DNA of 32,069 bases, from positions 1-32,069 of the IMG/VR virus record IMGVR_UViG_3300045988_166554; one strand, 5' to 3'. Under the pieces are notes generated by a model. The model did no database searches and was not told where the DNA came from. It was given only the letters and a program-made list of their open reading frames with translations. The position numbers were made by a program, and so were the translations under genes. This DNA is from a virus. Shown here in pieces: positions 2,500 through 27,434 of this stretch (its first letter is position 1; the number at the start of each line of letters is the position of its first letter).

Positions 2500-4326
2500 A
2501 TGGCACAAAACACGATTAATGTAAAAGCAAAAGGCTATTCAACAGCAAATGCATATCAATTTAGAATTACTGCAAATGATACAGGTAATATATCAGGTTC
2601 AAAAAGAGAGGTTGAGTGTTATTTAGATTCATATGCTACTAATCCAGGTGGATTTTATGATTATTCGCTACCAAGAGCCTATATTTTAATAGATGGAGTA
2701 CAGTATCAAAGTGCTGTCGTTAGCAAAATATGGCCGAGAGGGCAATGGGTACGTTTGGTTACTTGGAAAGGATATATCGAAAGCAATAAAACAATTACGG
2801 TTACGGGGCGTTTCAATTCAAATTTAGAGAGCGTTAATTATATGCCAGTTAAGGGTAATAATGATGTAAGTGTAAATTTAGAATTAAATGGTGTAGCATC
2901 AAAATTAAATAATACATTTTCAGCTCTTACATTCGATGTGGAACAATCAATCACATTAGATATTACCAAATATGTTGAAAGTTACACACAAAATATAAGG
3001 TGGGTTATATATAACGAAACAACACAAATAGAAACGTTGTTTGCGACATTTAATAATGTTGAAAATGGAAGTGTAATTCAATTATCACAAGAACAATTAA
3101 ATGCTTTATACCAAAATACCACCACAATTAAAATGCCTGCATTAGGAATGTATTTAGATACTTATGATGGAGAAACATTAATAGGTAGTGACAGAGTACC
3201 TATGGTAATAAGAATTTTGAATGCAGATCCAATATTTACTGATTTTGATTATGCAGATAGTAATTCGATAACCAATTCACTAACAAATAGTGCGCAAGAT
3301 ATAATTTTAGGATATTCCGCTTTAAAAGTAACAATTCCTACATCAAAAAAAGCGGTTGGACAAAAATATGCCACTATGCAAAGCTATATAATTGATACCG
3401 TGCCAATCAATTATAGTGAAAATGAAATAAATTTAGAAATTCCTAATTATAATTCAAATAAAATAATTGTTTCAGCCATAGATTCAAGACAAAAACAAAC
3501 CAATGTTGAAAAACAATTAAACATTATAAATTACAACCCTGTTGAAGTTAATACAACAGAAGTTGAAATTGAAAGAACAAATGGAAGTGAAGAAGAAACT
3601 AAAATTAGTTTTAGCGGTACATTTTGGAACGGTAATTTTGGCAAGACTACCAATTCTTTAACAATTTCATATAAATATCGTTTAGCTGGTTCAACAGGGG
3701 ACTACTCGACAGGAACGACAACAATTACTCCAACGATTAATGAAAGTTCATTTAGTGTAGTAGATAAAGCTATTTTAGGAGATACAGACAGCGGATTTGA
3801 TATTTCACAATCATATGAAATTGTATTTGAAATAAAAGATAAATTAGAAGATTTATCAAAATGTGAAATTACATGTATTCTTTCTGCTGGAAGAAATGCC
3901 ATTGATATAAAAGGAAATAAGGTTTTAAAAATAAACAATGTTCCTTTTGAAGAACTTATACCAAAGGTGGCAGATTATGTCTTTGAAAGCGGTAGCAATA
4001 GCAATGGAAATTATATAAAATATACTAATGGAACAATGATTTGTACGAGAAAAATTAATTTAAATTCCGTAAACATTCAAAACGCATGGGGAAGTCTTTT
4101 TCAATATATGAATACAACATTTTATAATTACGCACAAGAATTTATAGAGCCACCAACATTACAATTGACGGCAAAAGCAACAAGTGATGCTGGATTTTGG
4201 TTGGGTGATTATGGTAATAACTCAATGCAAACCAAAAGTGGATTTTCAGGAATATGTTTATTAAGACCGACAAAAAATATTGTAAATGCAGTTATTTTTA
4301 TAACTGCAATTGGAAAATGGAAATAG
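2500..4326 (+). CDS. tail fibre / receptor-binding protein
   Basis: 608 aa from the ATG at 2500, which has a GGGGAGG RBS. The ORF-track start at 2482 lacks an RBS. N/T/S-rich beta-type sequence. Sits downstream of the Tal-like gene. Confidence 0.5.
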   Translation: MAQNTINVKAKGYSTANAYQFRITANDTGNISGSKREVECYLDSYATNPGGFYDYSLPRAYILIDGVQYQSAVVSKIWPRGQWVRLVTWKGYIESNKTITVTGRFNSNLESVNYMPVKGNNDVSVNLELNGVASKLNNTFSALTFDVEQSITLDITKYVESYTQNIRWVIYNETTQIETLFATFNNVENGSVIQLSQEQLNALYQNTTTIKMPALGMYLDTYDGETLIGSDRVPMVIRILNADPIFTDFDYADSNSITNSLTNSAQDIILGYSALKVTIPTSKKAVGQKYATMQSYIIDTVPINYSENEINLEIPNYNSNKIIVSAIDSRQKQTNVEKQLNIINYNPVEVNTTEVEIERTNGSEEETKISFSGTFWNGNFGKTTNSLTISYKYRLAGSTGDYSTGTTTITPTINESSFSVVDKAILGDTDSGFDISQSYEIVFEIKDKLEDLSKCEITCILSAGRNAIDIKGNKVLKINNVPFEELIPKVADYVFESGSNSNGNYIKYTNGTMICTRKINLNSVNIQNAWGSLFQYMNTTFYNYAQEFIEPPTLQLTAKATSDAGFWLGDYGNNSMQTKSGFSGICLLRPTKNIVNAVIFITAIGKWK

Positions 4327-8379: not shown

Positions 8380-9534
8380 CTAGTAATATTTATCAGTAGT
8401 TTCTGCTATCTCCTTTCTTATTTTTGTTGATAAATGACCATAGTGATTCACTGTGGTTGAATAATTAGAATGGCCTAATCGCTCACTTATGTGGTATAAT
8501 TCTTTACCTTCTTCCATCATTGTCGCAACATAAGTATGTCGCAAATCATACATTCTTATTTTTTCAACATTTGCTCTATCACAAAAATAATAGAACGATT
8601 TTCTTAAACTAACATCTGATATAGGCTTATTTGTTGTTCTATTTAAGAATATTAACTCATTATCGTTTACTTCATATCCTAATTCGTGAATTAAGAAGTA
8701 TTTATAGCTATTAATTTCATTTATCAATTTATCCGTAATATCTATTACTCTTTGTGATTGATATGTTTTTGTATGTGATATAAAGTCTTGTGAATTTTTG
8801 TTATAATTTATAGAATGTAATATTGAAACACTTTTTGTTTCTTTGTTAAACATATCAAAGGTCAATGCTCTTGTTTCCCCAATTCTATCTCCTAGTGTAA
8901 ATCCTATTAATGTAAGTATTTTTGTTCTGTAAGCAGTCTCTTTATAAATATTGTTTTCTATACAATTATTTATTTCATCTAAAAATTTTTTTAAATCATT
9001 GGTTGTCCAAAATTTCATTTTTGGTTTTTCTGTTTTATATTTTGTAATACCTATCATAGGAGAATAATATATATATTCCTCTTTAATACACCAATTGAAA
9101 AAAGTTTTTAGTTCTTTTAATATTTGATTTTTTTGTTTTAAAGAACAATTTTGATTTTCAATAAAGGTTATAAAATATTGTTTGTTTAATTTTGTTAATT
9201 TTACATTTATTTTATTTTTTAAATATTTATTATATGTTCTTTCTTTTCTTAATAGCGTGTTATATTCCAATTTTGCCTCGTATTTGCACCAAGTAATATA
9301 TTTGCACCACATGCTATCAAAATCTTCCTTATTAAGTGTTTCTGTTGCTTTTGCATGTCTAATTTTAGGATTATCTCTAATTTTTAATGCTTCTTCTAAT
9401 TTCATTATCTTTTTACCTTCTACAGAAGCTATAGAAGTTTTAACTGGTTTGCTTAACATGATAATATAATTTTTATTTTTGATATTTCTATATATATTTT
9501 GGTATCTTGTTTTTTCATATTTTTTTAAATCCAT
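8380..9534 (-). CDS. int: tyrosine integrase (site-specific recombinase, phage integrase family)
   Basis: 384 aa. C-terminal catalytic region ..MYDLRHTYVATMMEEG..LGHSNYSTTVNHYGHL.. carries the R..H..Y tyrosine-recombinase signature and the conserved LGH motif. Confidence 0.85.
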   Translation of the reverse strand: MDLKKYEKTRYQNIYRNIKNKNYIIMLSKPVKTSIASVEGKKIMKLEEALKIRDNPKIRHAKATETLNKEDFDSMWCKYITWCKYEAKLEYNTLLRKERTYNKYLKNKINVKLTKLNKQYFITFIENQNCSLKQKNQILKELKTFFNWCIKEEYIYYSPMIGITKYKTEKPKMKFWTTNDLKKFLDEINNCIENNIYKETAYRTKILTLIGFTLGDRIGETRALTFDMFNKETKSVSILHSINYNKNSQDFISHTKTYQSQRVIDITDKLINEINSYKYFLIHELGYEVNDNELIFLNRTTNKPISDVSLRKSFYYFCDRANVEKIRMYDLRHTYVATMMEEGKELYHISERLGHSNYSTTVNHYGHLSTKIRKEIAETTDKYY

Positions 9535-22621: not shown

Positions 22622-24139
22622 ATGTTACAAATAGCAAATTTAGAAGAATTACATGCAAATGATATACCAAAATTATTAGAAAAAGTAAGGCCTGTATTAA
22701 AAAAAAGAAAGGAATTACATGATAAATATACTAGAAAAGCAGATGCATCAACAGTTATGTTTTCTGACACAAATTCAAATACAGTTATTCCGTTCGAAAA
22801 ATTCATAACTGATTTGGCAACTGGATATTTGAGTGGAACGCCAATTTATAGTGTTACTGATACAACGGATGAAGATAAGAAAAGATTATTAGAATTATTA
22901 TTGGATAAAAAACAACCGGATGCTGATTATAAAAAAGGTATGGAAATAATTATTAATTATGTTACTGGGTATAATGATGATTCAACAGAAAATTATGATT
23001 TATTTCATGATATTTTAGAAATGACAAGTTGTTATGAAATATTATATGAAAACGAAAATAATGAAATAGTGTATTCAAGATATGATCCGTTACAAACAGT
23101 AGCATGTTGGGATTATAATACACCTGTTAATTTGATAGGCTTAATAAGGACCTGGGATGAAGAAAATTTAAATGGTACTATAATAACTAAATTTGAATTG
23201 ACAGATAAATATGGTACTAGAACATATGATATTAGAGGTAATGAAGTTATAGAAAGTGATAATCAAAATCACAATTGGGGAGATGTACCTGCTATAGCTG
23301 TTGAAACAGACTTTGCCATATTTGAGACATGTGAAGATATTGTTCAATCATATGAACAATTAATTCAAAATGTACGAAATACTTATCAATATAATGATAG
23401 CGATTGTAAATTAAAAATAACAGGGTATACTCCTGAACATCCAATGGTAGTGCCAGATGAAAATGGTGAACCTAAAATTAATCCAGCAAGAATAAAAGAG
23501 GATGAGGCATGGGTCAAGAGTTTGACTATTTATGTCGCAGAAGGTGGGGATGTTTCTTGGTTAGTAAAACAATTGGATGCTAACGGAGTAACAACAATAC
23601 TAAAGGCATATATAGATTTAATGTTTCAAATTGCAGGAATACCGAATACAAGTGATTTAGCATTTAATTCAACCGATTTAAATGCAAGCGCAATTGATAG
23701 AAAATTTTATGTTATGAATATGGCGACAGCTTGCGTTGTTTCTCAATTGAAAAAAGCATATTTGAGAAGATGGGAATTAATTTTTGGAAGAATAAATTTA
23801 AAAAAAGACACTAATTTTGATTTTAGAGACATAGAAATAGATTTACCTAAGAACTTACCTGCGAATGATGATGAAAAAATTGATAGTATGTTGAAACTTC
23901 AAAATGTTTTATCACTACAAACAATTATTGAAAAATTAGGATATAATTACCTCGATGAAAAGAATAAAAAGGATGCTGAAGCAGAAGATAATATGCTAAA
24001 TAACCTTGAACGTATGAAAATGCTAAGCGGTATTGATGATACAACAATAAAAGAGCAGGAAGGAACAGATAAAATCAAAGTTGATAAATCAAATGATGAA
24101 TTAAAAGAAGAATCAGATGAAGAAAAAATAAAAAAGTAG
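22622..24139 (+). CDS. portal protein (SPP1 gp6-like)
   Basis: 505 aa. Lies directly after terL. Acidic C-terminus. Confidence 0.7.
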   Translation: MLQIANLEELHANDIPKLLEKVRPVLKKRKELHDKYTRKADASTVMFSDTNSNTVIPFEKFITDLATGYLSGTPIYSVTDTTDEDKKRLLELLLDKKQPDADYKKGMEIIINYVTGYNDDSTENYDLFHDILEMTSCYEILYENENNEIVYSRYDPLQTVACWDYNTPVNLIGLIRTWDEENLNGTIITKFELTDKYGTRTYDIRGNEVIESDNQNHNWGDVPAIAVETDFAIFETCEDIVQSYEQLIQNVRNTYQYNDSDCKLKITGYTPEHPMVVPDENGEPKINPARIKEDEAWVKSLTIYVAEGGDVSWLVKQLDANGVTTILKAYIDLMFQIAGIPNTSDLAFNSTDLNASAIDRKFYVMNMATACVVSQLKKAYLRRWELIFGRINLKKDTNFDFRDIEIDLPKNLPANDDEKIDSMLKLQNVLSLQTIIEKLGYNYLDEKNKKDAEAEDNMLNNLERMKMLSGIDDTTIKEQEGTDKIKVDKSNDELKEESDEEKIKK

Positions 24140-25609
24140 GTGTTTCAAATGAATAATGCAGAAATACTGAGAGAAAGATGGAAAAACACAGATAAATATT
24201 TATTAAAATATCTTAAAAAATATAAAATTATAAATAGAAATACTAGAGATAATATACAAAATGTGTTTAATGAATTAAACATAGATTATAAGGATATAAA
24301 TAAAAATATTTCTAAACAACAAAAAAACAAATTAGACAGATTTATATTAAATCTAAAAAAAAATAAATTGCTTAAAGATTATTTTGGATACAAAGCAAGA
24401 TTAATATTTTCAAAAAAAAGTGTTACGTATTTAGAAATGATGGAAATAATGATAATGGCATGTTATATACAACAAAATGAAGATTTGAAAGAATATAATA
24501 ATCTATTGTTTTATGAAGTATGTAAAGAAAGTTACGAACAAGGAATAAAAGATATAGGAAAGATAAAAAAAATCAAACCTATATCTTTTAAATTGCCAAT
24601 ACTATATACAATACTTAATATTCCAATTTTTAATGCAACGGCTGAAAGTTATTTATATTCTTTGGCTTTAACAAATGCTGAAGAAACATTTAAACAAGTA
24701 TTAATAAATATGCAACTAAATAGAGAATTAAATGTTGATAATAAGTATTTTGAAAATTTGTTTAATAAACAAGATAATAGATTTATAAATATAAACAAAG
24801 ATAAAGCTAGTGGTGGTGTTGCCAATATAGTTGAAAATATAACCAATTTGGCATATTTACAATCCGGAATAGATACTAATACGACAGAATGTAGGTTTAT
24901 TGCTGAAATGGACAAAAGAACAACTAAAATGTGTGAAAGTTTAAATAATCAAGTGTTTAAAATAAATGAAATGAATACATATCAAAGGTATAGTGATGCG
25001 GATAAAAAAATTATAACATACCATACGCAAGGATTAGTAAGAGGCGAAAATTTACCTCCTATCAGTAATCATTTTCATTGGTGTAGAAGTACAATAACAT
25101 ACTTAACAGACATGCAAAGAAATGAACTTGATGAAAAGTTACAAACATTTAATGAAAAATTAGCCATTAGTAAATGGTTAAGTAGCGACTTCTATTACAT
25201 TAACCAAAAAATGTATATAGATCAAAAACTTACAAAGGATGAAAAAAGATTAGTGAAAGATTTATATAGAGGTTTAAACAAAGAACCATATTATATTGCT
25301 AAAAATGATGAATACATAATAAGAACTCTTGAAGTTGATGATAATACTATACAGGATATTATAAATACTCACCCACTTAATAAAATATATAAATCTAAGG
25401 CCTTTGAATCATATTCTTTAAAAAATAATTATAATCCTAAAGGAAATGTGTTTTTTTATGTTAAGGGTAGCCAAAAAGCGAGAAACATGTTAAAATATAA
25501 TCCAATGGAAAGAGAAGCTGAAGTTTTATATCAATATGGAACTAAGTTTATAACCAAAGATTATTATATTAACAATGGAAAACACTATTTCTTATTGGAG
25601 GAATTGTAA
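24140..25609 (+). CDS. minor head protein: MuF/SPP1 gp7-like domain fused to a C-terminal ADP-ribosyltransferase-like (R-S-E type) domain
   Basis: Phage_Mu_F block ..DKRTTKMCESLNNQVFKINEMN..PPISNHFHWCRST... The C-terminal ~130 aa carry R377 (LYRG), S424-Y-S426 and E457-R-E-A-E461, with the spacing of C2/C3-type ADP-ribosyltransferases. The ORF-track start is GTG at 24140; an ATG lies at 24149. Confidence 0.7.
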   Translation: MFQMNNAEILRERWKNTDKYLLKYLKKYKIINRNTRDNIQNVFNELNIDYKDINKNISKQQKNKLDRFILNLKKNKLLKDYFGYKARLIFSKKSVTYLEMMEIMIMACYIQQNEDLKEYNNLLFYEVCKESYEQGIKDIGKIKKIKPISFKLPILYTILNIPIFNATAESYLYSLALTNAEETFKQVLINMQLNRELNVDNKYFENLFNKQDNRFININKDKASGGVANIVENITNLAYLQSGIDTNTTECRFIAEMDKRTTKMCESLNNQVFKINEMNTYQRYSDADKKIITYHTQGLVRGENLPPISNHFHWCRSTITYLTDMQRNELDEKLQTFNEKLAISKWLSSDFYYINQKMYIDQKLTKDEKRLVKDLYRGLNKEPYYIAKNDEYIIRTLEVDDNTIQDIINTHPLNKIYKSKAFESYSLKNNYNPKGNVFFYVKGSQKARNMLKYNPMEREAEVLYQYGTKFITKDYYINNGKHYFLLEEL

Positions 25610-25785
25610 TGGATAAAGAAAAATTGTTTAAAGATCCTCGTTGGACGACATATCAACCAGTACAAGTATTAAATATTGATGTACAGCCGACTGAAGATGA
25701 CAAGAAAAAGGTTGAAGAATTTAGAAGATTTATTGATGAAACAATAGAAAATGAAAAAATGAAAGACACTAAATTAAAAAAATAG
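25609..25785 (+). CDS. small ORF (58 aa), translationally coupled (TAATG) to the MuF/ADP-ribosyltransferase-like gene
   Basis: RBS GGAGGAATTGTA. MDKEKLFKDPRWTTYQPVQVLNIDVQPTEDDKKKVEEFRRFIDETIENEKMKDTKLKK. Below the ORF-track size cutoff. Its stop lies inside the terminator stem. Confidence 0.45.
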   Translation: MDKEKLFKDPRWTTYQPVQVLNIDVQPTEDDKKKVEEFRRFIDETIENEKMKDTKLKK

Positions 25786-25795
25786 TGTCTTTTTT
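25765..25795 (+). terminator. rho-independent terminator
   Basis: GACACTA-aattaaaaaaa-TAGTGTC followed by TTTTTT. Confidence 0.55.
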
Positions 25796-25961
25796 GCTAC
25801 TATTTTATAGGTAGCTTAGAGTAGTTATGGAGTAGTCCTCAAGTAACTATTCTAAGGTGCTAATAAAGCACAAAGTCGATTGAATAAAATCGGCTTTTTT
25901 GGCGTGATTCACCGGAACGAATTATTTGGTTTTATCGACCGAGAAAGATAGGAGGAAGATT

Positions 25962-26555
25962 ATGAAAGATAATCAATATTTAATGCCATTGAACATTCAG
26001 TTGTTTGCTGAAGGAGGAGATGGTAATGTGGTTACTGATGGTACCGAAAATCCAACAGATGGCAATTCAATTGAAAATAAGCAAGAAAAAACTTATACAC
26101 GAGATGAATTAAACAAAATTATTTCAGCTGAAAAGGAAAAAGTAAAAGCAGAATTAATAAAAGATGCCGAAGCGAAGAGAACCGAAGCTGAAAAGTTAGC
26201 AAAGATGGATGCCGAAGAAAAACATAAGTATGAACTAGCAAAAGCTGAAAAAGAAAAAAATGATGCTTTGGCAAAATTAAATGCTTATGAATTAAAGGAA
26301 CAGGCAACCAAAATTGCAAATGAAAAGGAATTGGATATATCCTTACTTGATATCATTGATTATTCAAAAGAAACTGCTGATAGTGTTAAAGAAAAGATTG
26401 AAAGTATAGATAATGCTTTTAAAAAAGCAATCGAAAAGAGAGTCAATGAAAAATTACAAGAAAAAAGTCCAAGAAATGTAACATCTGCTTTATTGAATGC
26501 AGATAGGGAATATTTAAAAAATAAATACAAAAATAATCCTTATTTTAAAGGATAA
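25962..26555 (+). CDS. scaffolding protein
   Basis: The ATG at 25962 has an AGGAGGAAG RBS. N-terminus MKDNQYLMPLNIQLFAEGG, the common scaffold leader. Lys/Glu-rich coiled coil. Precedes the capsid gene. Confidence 0.75.
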   Translation: MKDNQYLMPLNIQLFAEGGDGNVVTDGTENPTDGNSIENKQEKTYTRDELNKIISAEKEKVKAELIKDAEAKRTEAEKLAKMDAEEKHKYELAKAEKEKNDALAKLNAYELKEQATKIANEKELDISLLDIIDYSKETADSVKEKIESIDNAFKKAIEKRVNEKLQEKSPRNVTSALLNADREYLKNKYKNNPYFKG

Positions 26556-26576
26556 GAAAGAAAGGAATGATAAAAT

Positions 26577-27434
26577 ATGGCAGTATTATATGGAAGCCAA
26601 CACGTAGATGAAAAGTATTCATCAACAATTGAACCAAATTTATATTCAGACACAGTCTTAATACCAGGAGTAACTTATACAGATAAGTATCAAGTAGGTC
26701 CTGCAGGGGGCATTTATGTTCATAAAATCAAGAAAGGAAATAAAGTAACAGTAGGAACACCAGGCAGAGATTTTACTGATGAAGCTGCAGCAGATGACTT
26801 AATACCTATTATTTTTAATAATAATTTCCAAAAATCAAGAAAAATTTATGGGGTACAAGCTAAAGCGGTTTCATTTGCAATGGGAGAAGAGTATTTAACT
26901 GATAGTTTAAATCAAACTAAAGAAGCACGCCAATATTCAGGAATTGCTTGTATGGTTAATGAAGGTACAGTTTCAACAGATACAGCAGCAACTACAAAAG
27001 CTAATCTTGTTGATAAATTAACAGCATTAAGAAAGGCAATAAAAGATGCAAAAGGTAAAGCAAATTTTGCATTAGTTTCGACTGATATTTATGCTATGGC
27101 ATTATCTACATTAGGATTACAATCAGTTCAAGATCCTGCTATTGTAAGTGGAGAACTTATCAAAAGATTTGGATTAAACATTATTGAATGTAATTCATTT
27201 GATGAAGAAACAGCAAAATATTATGATAAAACAGGCACACTTAAAACAGTTGATTTAACAGATGTTGAAATGATTGTAGGTTATCATGAAGCATTCTCAT
27301 TATTAGATAATATGGAAATGTATAGATTAATTGATAGTGAAAACTTTAATGGATCTAAAGCACAAGTTGAATATAACTCTGGTATGACAGTAAATAGTCC
27401 AGAACAAATAATTGTAAAAAAAAAAGTAGCGTAA
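26577..27434 (+). CDS. major capsid protein
   Basis: 285 aa. Lies directly after the scaffold gene. Ends in ..IIVKKKVA, encoded through a 9-10 nt A-run. Confidence 0.7.
   Translation: MAVLYGSQHVDEKYSSTIEPNLYSDTVLIPGVTYTDKYQVGPAGGIYVHKIKKGNKVTVGTPGRDFTDEAAADDLIPIIFNNNFQKSRKIYGVQAKAVSFAMGEEYLTDSLNQTKEARQYSGIACMVNEGTVSTDTAATTKANLVDKLTALRKAIKDAKGKANFALVSTDIYAMALSTLGLQSVQDPAIVSGELIKRFGLNIIECNSFDEETAKYYDKTGTLKTVDLTDVEMIVGYHEAFSLLDNMEMYRLIDSENFNGSKAQVEYNSGMTVNSPEQIIVKKKVA

Follow-up and report, generated by a model that had tools for sequence, protein, structure and literature searches.

MuF toxins of temperate phages with small open reading frames (ORFs) downstream were described by Jamet et al. 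(2017, PMC5576092), with 14% of the toxins classed as ADP-ribosyltransferases (ARTs); the EFV toxin of an E. faecalis V583 prophage is an example of such a MuF-ART (PMC5576092). Another, Bxa of the Bacteroides stercoris phage PhiBxa, is neutralized by the small binder Bsi, which acts through active-site binding, and by the hydrolase BAH (Alexei et al. 2024, PMC11699363). Here, we describe a MuF-ART locus in a 32,069-nucleotide stretch of viral DNA (IMG/VR record IMGVR_UViG_3300045988_166554, positions 1 to 32,069), referred to below as the window. Its MuF-ART gene is followed by an overlapping 58-residue ORF; both genes, proposed earlier from the letters of the window only (the sequence-only reading), appear in the ORF list, and the TAATG overlap between them was found in the sequence as claimed. 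Residue numbers are counted from GTG 24140 throughout. In the reading that we favor, with a probability of about 0.7, the MuF-ART protein, with R395, S424/S426, and E459-x-E461 in its active site, would be packaged and ejected into the host, and the 58-residue protein would block the ART in the producing cell.

Domain composition and predicted active site

Profile and fold searches, together with the Pfam membership of distant relatives, assign residues 330 to 489 to the R-S-E ADP-ribosyltransferases, as the sequence-only reading had proposed for the C-terminal part of the protein. Profile similarity to ART families, also anticipated there, was found in part. Pfam ART models gave no match at E ≤ 1, either on the full protein or on residues 331 to 489, but a profile made from a 22-sequence alignment of the domain (A1) matched Lmo0066 (E = 6.7e-7), Tre1 (3.6e-5), SpvB (1.1e-4), and Vis (0.03) in the PDB; a single-sequence search with the domain reached Lmo0066 of Listeria at an E value of 0.013. 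NCBIfam and PADLOC-type models attached no name to residues 330 to 489. AlphaFold modeled the ART domain with high confidence (predicted local distance difference test, pLDDT, 91.2; predicted template modeling score, pTM, 0.84). In a Foldseek search of the PDB, the model superposed best on Tre1 (template modeling score, TM, 0.80; E = 1.9e-11), followed by Lmo0066 (TM, 0.73), Certhrax, C3bot, Vis, ExoS, CDTa, VIP2, and XopAI, so that the fold expected from the letters, C3bot included, was recovered; the search gave 145 PDB matches at E ≤ 0.001, and among the matches listed 50 of 50 are ARTs. The full-length model (pLDDT, 89.6) resembled viral "minor capsid protein" models and ART models.

An exhaustive search of 1.84 billion representatives with the ART profile retrieved 879 relatives of the domain, with 375 representative clusters at E ≤ 1e-10. 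Of the 879, 150 were listed, and in each of these the match ends at most about 25 residues from the C terminus. Ten distant relatives were sampled: PF03496 (ADPrib_exo_Tox) matched eight of them, seven above the 23.4-bit cut-off, and their N termini belong to Phage_Mu_F, Phage_min_cap2, or portal plus NUDIX. Because distant relatives thus match PF03496 and carry head-protein N termini, the domain is a divergent branch of the C3/VIP2/Alt superfamily located on head-internal phage proteins. Close relatives were fewer, with three close matches in a large protein database when the ART domain alone served as the query (six for the 58-residue ORF) and four viral, two genome, and four metagenome loci in scans with the ART profile. 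The sub-branch, missed by current Pfam models, is new.

The alignment to solved ARTs places the predicted active site in three model strands (residues 63 to 68, 94 to 97, and 132 to 135 of the domain). R395 corresponds to the arginine in YRG of Tre1, Lmo0066, and SpvB. The serine and glutamate motifs named in the sequence-only reading, S424-Y-S426 and E457-R-E459-A-E461, are present and match the STS and ExE motifs in the alignment to these enzymes; specifically, EAEVLY corresponds to EAEVL[YF] of Tre1 and Lmo0066 and to EAEMLF of SpvB. The loop preceding ExE shows the lowest pLDDT within the domain. A different arginine, R377 in LYRG, had been named as catalytic; this choice has to be corrected, as many homologs have T or K at position 377 and the model shows this residue as part of a helix, whereas R395 is invariant. 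With it, the spacings of about 47 and 33 residues "as in C3" become 29 and 37 residues when counted from R395, and because of these spacings the domain is grouped with the compact Tre1/SpvB type and not with C3. C3 enzymes use QxE, modify asparagine, and have a longer motif spacing, and an ExE motif predicts arginine as the ADP-ribose acceptor. Overall, the domain is an active-looking mono-ADP-ribosyltransferase, for which R395, S424/S426, and E459-x-E461 are the predicted catalytic residues.

In the A1 alignment, R395, S426, E461, the NAD-site helix motif Y-x-x-N (Y352/N355), and the EVLYQYG strand are invariant down to 42% identity. Two positions vary in part of the family, i.e., S424 (S or A) and E459 (E or N). 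That the domain is a dead ART fold with a structural role in the head, next to a small ORF that is an unrelated phage gene, would fit these two variable positions and the lack of a Pfam ART match on the protein itself, yet appears very improbable in view of the invariant residues, of the better conservation of the C-terminal domain than of the MuF part in 48 of 52 homologs, and of the frequency of MuF proteins without an ART domain. Since such short MuF proteins are common, the domain is not needed for head assembly.

The two exchanges occur together in a sub-branch comprising P0003, P0013, P0046, P0047, P0053, P0055, and locus L091, which reads YEAYS...GNVEVLY (S to A and first E to N, at window positions 25409-25411 and 25514-25516) and keeps the coupled small ORF; they may reflect a change of acceptor specificity.

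For the N-terminal part, the sequence-only reading had placed a Phage_Mu_F block at residues 250 to 320, which agrees with the block DKRTTKMC...PPISNHFHWCRST found at residues 258 to 318. Curated models matched below their thresholds: Pfam Phage_Mu_F (PF04233) scored 16.2 bits (E = 0.018; cut-off, 29.6) and TIGR01641 scored 20 bits (E = 6.6e-4; cut-off, 39.65) on the window protein, and the curated MuF hidden Markov model gave sub-threshold matches in 5 of 11 family members. A profile of residues 1 to 329 and short, 320-residue relatives (A2) was compared by hhalign with the N termini of MuF proteins that pass PF04233 at an E value of about 1e-16. The alignment covered 290 columns with a probability of 97.5% (E = 5.3e-12) and spans the motif D-x-x-T-x-x-C...PP-x-H-x-x-C-R-S-T, with a 21-residue insertion in the window protein. 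The protein also matches PHROG families annotated as head morphogenesis or minor head protein; a PDB profile search with the MuF domain gave no match. The short homologs stop just past CRSTITY, corresponding to residue ~321 of the window protein. By profile alignment, residues 1 to 325 are homologous to Pfam-verified MuF proteins, and because of this homology and the position right behind the portal gene, we consider the protein a divergent MuF/SPP1-gp7 minor head protein.

The coupled 58-residue ORF and exchange of the cassette

Among 120 close relatives, 52 carry the ART domain; the rest keep the MuF part, at identities of up to 97%, with an unrelated C terminus or none. Specifically, the nearest N-terminal relatives (67 to 97% identity) end in CdiA_C, Ntox50, PBECR2, other domains, or no further domain, as in P0004, where the N terminus is 97% identical and the C terminus different. 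N- and C-terminal identities across the homologs are uncorrelated (r = 0.25). The MuF polymorphic-toxin architecture suggested by the sequence-only reading, with a conserved N terminus, swapped C termini, and a co-varying small ORF, is borne out by these comparisons. In a blastn alignment of the window with contig L001, identity was 98.9% over 23019-25101, absent over 25102-25847, and 99.0% over 25848-26687; the block replaced in L001 coincides precisely with the C-terminal domain, small ORF, and hairpin, in place of which L001 carries an unrelated C terminus and an unrelated 65-residue ORF. ART domain and 58-residue ORF are exchanged as one cassette between near-identical phages. For the MuF-toxin class, this pair is a natural experiment, the two phages being 99% identical on both sides of a differing 0.75-kb cassette of toxin domain and small ORF.

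The exchange bears on an alternative that we consider unlikely, i.e., that the packaged ART is an Alt-like host-takeover enzyme that mildly reprograms the newly entered cell, with RNA polymerase and translation factors as conceivable targets, or shifts the choice between lysis and lysogeny, with the 58-residue protein as a regulator of timing or a chaperone for folding or packaging. Matches of the full-length model include Alt-type phage proteins named "RNA polymerase ADP-ribosyltransferase," Alt/VIP2-family ARTs fused to MuF have been described as injected effectors (PMC9503650), a role in the lysogeny decision has been proposed for low-toxicity MuF ARTs (Jamet et al., PMC5576092), and one or two MuF copies are expected per capsid (PMC5576092). 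However, the cassettes exchanged here include nuclease-type toxins (CdiA_C, Ntox50), each with its own small ORF, which is a toxin-immunity signature, and the MuF-ART Bxa is strongly antibacterial and requires immunity proteins (PMC11699363).

The small ORF is tied to the ART domain in position and in occurrence. The stop codon TAA (25607-25609) overlaps the start codon ATG (25609-25611), and seven bases separate GGAGG (25597-25601) from this ATG; L091 has the same arrangement with GGAGGAG. The encoded protein matches PHROG 12755, a family of unknown function, at an E value of 6.9e-4. In a survey of 82 related loci, a homologous overlapping small ORF was found at ART-type loci (12 of 12 viral ones and L091 to L096), where the small-ORF family profile matched the ORFs adjoining ART-type MuF genes at E ≤ 1e-29. 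The same profile gave no match among the small ORFs beside other C termini; these loci have unrelated small ORFs or none, and an adjacent small ORF was seen at none of the 14 short MuF loci. No ADP_ribosyl_GH, Macro, or NADAR match was found among the 38 other ORFs of the window. Co-variation with the ART domain, translational coupling, absence from short MuF loci, and the lack of a hydrolase together give the genomic pattern of a cognate immunity protein, for which Bsi, the small blocker of Bxa, is a direct precedent (PMC11699363); the 58-residue protein most likely inhibits the ART domain as its immunity partner. The calculated isoelectric points are 8.9 for the basic ART domain versus 6.3 for the near-neutral 58-residue protein. 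An apparent kinship of the family with the small ORFs beside metallopeptidase-type MuF genes was rejected as compositional (K/E-rich), as it disappeared with composition correction and in profile comparison.

Related arrangements were observed in two named phages. Clostridium phage phiCD24-1 encodes a related MuF-ART with 32% identity in the ART domain (L097, 2958-3827; LN681534.1, 5027-5896), followed by four ORFs for a 58-residue protein with a PRW motif, a 79-residue orphan ART fragment (C-terminal half), a 71-residue protein, and a second 58-residue PRW-motif protein. This array resembles the orphan toxin/immunity arrays of contact-dependent inhibition (CDI) and Rhs loci. The match between the small-ORF family and the PRW peptides in hhalign was weak (P = 9e-4; probability, 23%) and serves as a lead only. 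PHROG 25063, a 79-residue profile, matches residues 422 to 488 of the window protein. In the Lactobacillus prophage Lj771 (NC_010179.2; L098, ~2955-3115), a gene labeled "head maturation protease" encodes a fusion of MuF and ART (ART-domain identity, 31%), and its stop codon is overlapped by an unannotated 52-residue ORF; this label of PHROG 595 is probably a misnomer for the MuF-ART family.

Two further variations concern the genes themselves. Locus L008 (4582-4658; logan:SRR26844667_403) encodes a MuF protein with a CdiA_C (tRNase-type) end and has no small ORF downstream; a tRNA-Pro(UGG) gene lies ~90 nucleotides past the stop codon and could be a replacement or decoy tRNA in lieu of an immunity gene. 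In L093 (2408-2983), the ART domain resides in a 191-residue ORF that begins inside the MuF motif, and P0121 and P0122 are 165-residue proteins 91% and 78% identical to the ART domain; in all three, the small ORF still follows. Such short ART genes could have arisen from MuF genes by frameshift or could represent free cassettes.

Phage context and gene layout

The locus is carried by a temperate phage. The window has a low G+C content (27.7%) and contains genes for repressor-type helix-turn-helix proteins, recombination, and IrrE-like proteins in addition to the features in Table 1. Its head module is SPP1-like, in the order TerS-TerL-portal-MuF-scaffold-capsid: the MuF-ART gene directly follows the SPP1_portal gene and directly precedes the gene for a DUF4355 scaffold protein, behind which lies the capsid gene, and the order portal-MuF-scaffold is identical across all related loci examined.

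Table 1. Positions of features of the MuF-ART locus and of neighboring genes in the window
Feature	Position	Strand	Basis or remark
Integrase	8380-9534	-	
Small terminase	from 20939		
Large terminase	from 21343		
SPP1-type portal (SPP1_portal)	22622-24139		
MuF-ART gene	24140..25609	+	489 aa from GTG 24140; 486 aa from ATG 24149
MuF/SPP1 gp7-like head-morphogenesis domain (conserved trafficking part), residues 4-321, as assigned	24149..25101	+	hhalign, synteny, short homologs
Exchangeable cassette (ART domain, 58-aa ORF, and hairpin)	25102..25847	+	blastn against contig L001
R-S-E ADP-ribosyltransferase domain, residues 330-489, as assigned	25127..25606	+	Profile, fold search, Pfam membership of distant relatives
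R395 codon, invariant arginine (YIIRT), first strand	25322..25324	+	R66 of the domain in A1; model strand 63-68
S424-Y425-S426 codons, STS-motif equivalent	25409..25417	+	Aligns with FMSTS/FMSTT of Tre1, SpvB, and Lmo0066
E459-A460-E461 codons, ExE motif at the end of the ARTT (ADP-ribosylating turn-turn) loop	25514..25522	+	Alignment to solved ARTs
Ribosome-binding site GGAGGAA, within the last codons (LEE) of the ART domain	25597..25603	+	Read from sequence
58-aa ORF, candidate inhibitor/immunity protein of the ART domain	25609..25785	+	TAATG coupling; co-occurrence
Hairpin and U-run, terminator-like	25761..25793	+	11-bp stem, 11-nt loop; dG, -11.2; z, -4.5; overlaps the end of the 58-aa ORF

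The terminator claimed by the sequence-only reading at the end of the small ORF was upheld as a structure, in that a hairpin with a U-run is present, but not as a call, as a consensus terminator scan reported no site, this hairpin included. An Rfam search of the whole window gave no match. The 58-residue ORF is separated from the scaffold gene by 140 nucleotides. A second hairpin with a U-run lies in the spacer (25786-25961) at about 25873-25900 (dG, -12.5; z, -3.6), and the spacer stretches TTATAGGTAG... and ...GGTTTTATCGACCGAGAAAGATAGGAGGAAGATTATG are found again in related loci with other C termini.

The start of the MuF-ART gene is more likely ATG 24149 than GTG 24140, because the homologs all start at the methionine equivalent to M4, which is invariant in A2, and because AGGTG is located 6 nucleotides upstream of this ATG; we thus regard ATG 24149 as probably the true start. 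Full-length homologs measure 485 to 491 residues. The scaffold ORF (25926-26555) is listed from TTG 25926; AGGAGGAAGATT precedes ATG 25962, where related genes begin (MKDNQ...), and its true start is probably 25962.

Relatives of the MuF-ART protein are also located on contigs of bacterial metagenome-assembled genomes (76 to 308 kb). By record names only, some relatives belong to gut Firmicutes or uncultured Bacilli/Tenericutes bins. This could point to a released fitness factor or weapon, for which capsid delivery would be secondary and the ART would act outside the producer after induction and lysis, on competitors or animal cells; Bxa, from a prophage of a gut Bacteroides, targets epithelial cells of the host and promotes colonization of the gut (PMC11699363). 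We consider this improbable here, as no signal peptide or cell-entry module is evident and the sole noncatalytic part of the protein is the capsid-targeting MuF domain.

Proposed mechanism and comparison with known systems

In the favored reading of a packaged effector with a cognate inhibitor, which follows PMC5576092, PMC9503650, and PMC11699363, the MuF part would dock the protein at the portal, and a few copies would be packaged and enter the next host together with the DNA. Once inside, the ExE-type ART would ADP-ribosylate arginines, one or several, in at least one bacterial protein; the outcome could be killing, growth arrest, host takeover, or a lysogeny bias. In the producer, the coupled 58-residue protein would bind the ART domain and block it, so that the enzyme stays silent while particles are assembled; as no ADP-ribosylhydrolase is encoded by the phage, we propose a nonenzymatic, Bsi-like immunity.

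Several points weigh against this reading. In addition to the missing Pfam ART match and the variation at S424 and E459 described above, a coupled small ORF is missing in 19 of 33 MuF loci with the most frequent other type of C terminus, so that a partner gene is not obligatory for MuF fusions. No kinship between the 58-residue protein and known immunity proteins could be detected. Moreover, the 58-residue ORF is part of a late operon, so that protection can extend to the producing cell but probably not to a lysogen that meets incoming particles.

It is possible, and we put it forward tentatively, that the 58-residue protein founds a new family of minimal, nonenzymatic inhibitors of Tre1/SpvB-like ARTs that suffice without a hydrolase. 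Phage heads would then carry toxin/antitoxin cassettes whose orphan modules parallel those at CDI and Rhs loci. If it is the inhibitor, the protein would be a stand-alone ART blocker of very small size, directed at the arginine type and useful for studying packaged phage ARTs at entry. The Pfam-invisible ART subfamily extends over the 375 clusters given above, where the sampled members reside on MuF, minor-capsid, or portal proteins. The locus does not alter how MuF toxins are currently understood.

The nearest solved structures are those of Tre1-Tri1, from a type VI secretion system of Serratia (PDB 6dre/6drh), and Lmo0066, from a Listeria ART-ADP-ribosylhydrolase (ARH) pair (PDB 8za7), with TM scores of 0.80 and 0.73 at ~22% identity. 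They share the compact R-S-E core, with YRG, FMSTS, and EAEVLY versus IIRT, FESYS, and EAEVLY in the window protein, but are delivered by bacterial secretion systems and not by a phage head, and their immunity proteins are ARH-type enzymes and not a 58-residue peptide. T4 Alt and the VIP2/C3-type PF03496 enzymes belong to the same superfamily as the window ART by transitive homology. Alt is packaged in the T4 head and injected with the DNA (PMC9503650); to our knowledge, it is neither fused to MuF nor accompanied by an immunity partner.

Closer still in architecture are the MuF-ART systems. By published description, Bxa/Bsi/BAH resembles the present locus in having a MuF-ART in the head-morphogenesis region, an ExE arginine-type ART, and a small adjacent protein; it differs in that the window has no BAH equivalent or macro domain and a single 58-residue partner as opposed to three adjacent ORFs, and in that the host phylum is different. 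With the MuF toxins of Jamet et al. (2017), the locus shares the MuF head domain with a variable C-terminal toxin, the position in the packaging/head module of a temperate phage, and a small ORF directly downstream. In contrast to those, the window MuF lies below the Pfam threshold, the ART is missed by Pfam, and the small-ORF family (PHROG 12755) is uncharacterized; moreover, the present sources are uncultured low-G+C phage and metagenome contigs, with uncultured Bacilli/Tenericutes bins as the nearest genome records. Already published, then, are MuF-toxin fusions, their ART members, the downstream small ORFs, and one dissected MuF-ART (Bxa); the new elements are an ART sub-branch that Pfam does not detect, a 58-residue partner family that is uncharacterized and occurs without a hydrolase, and a very clean cassette swap.

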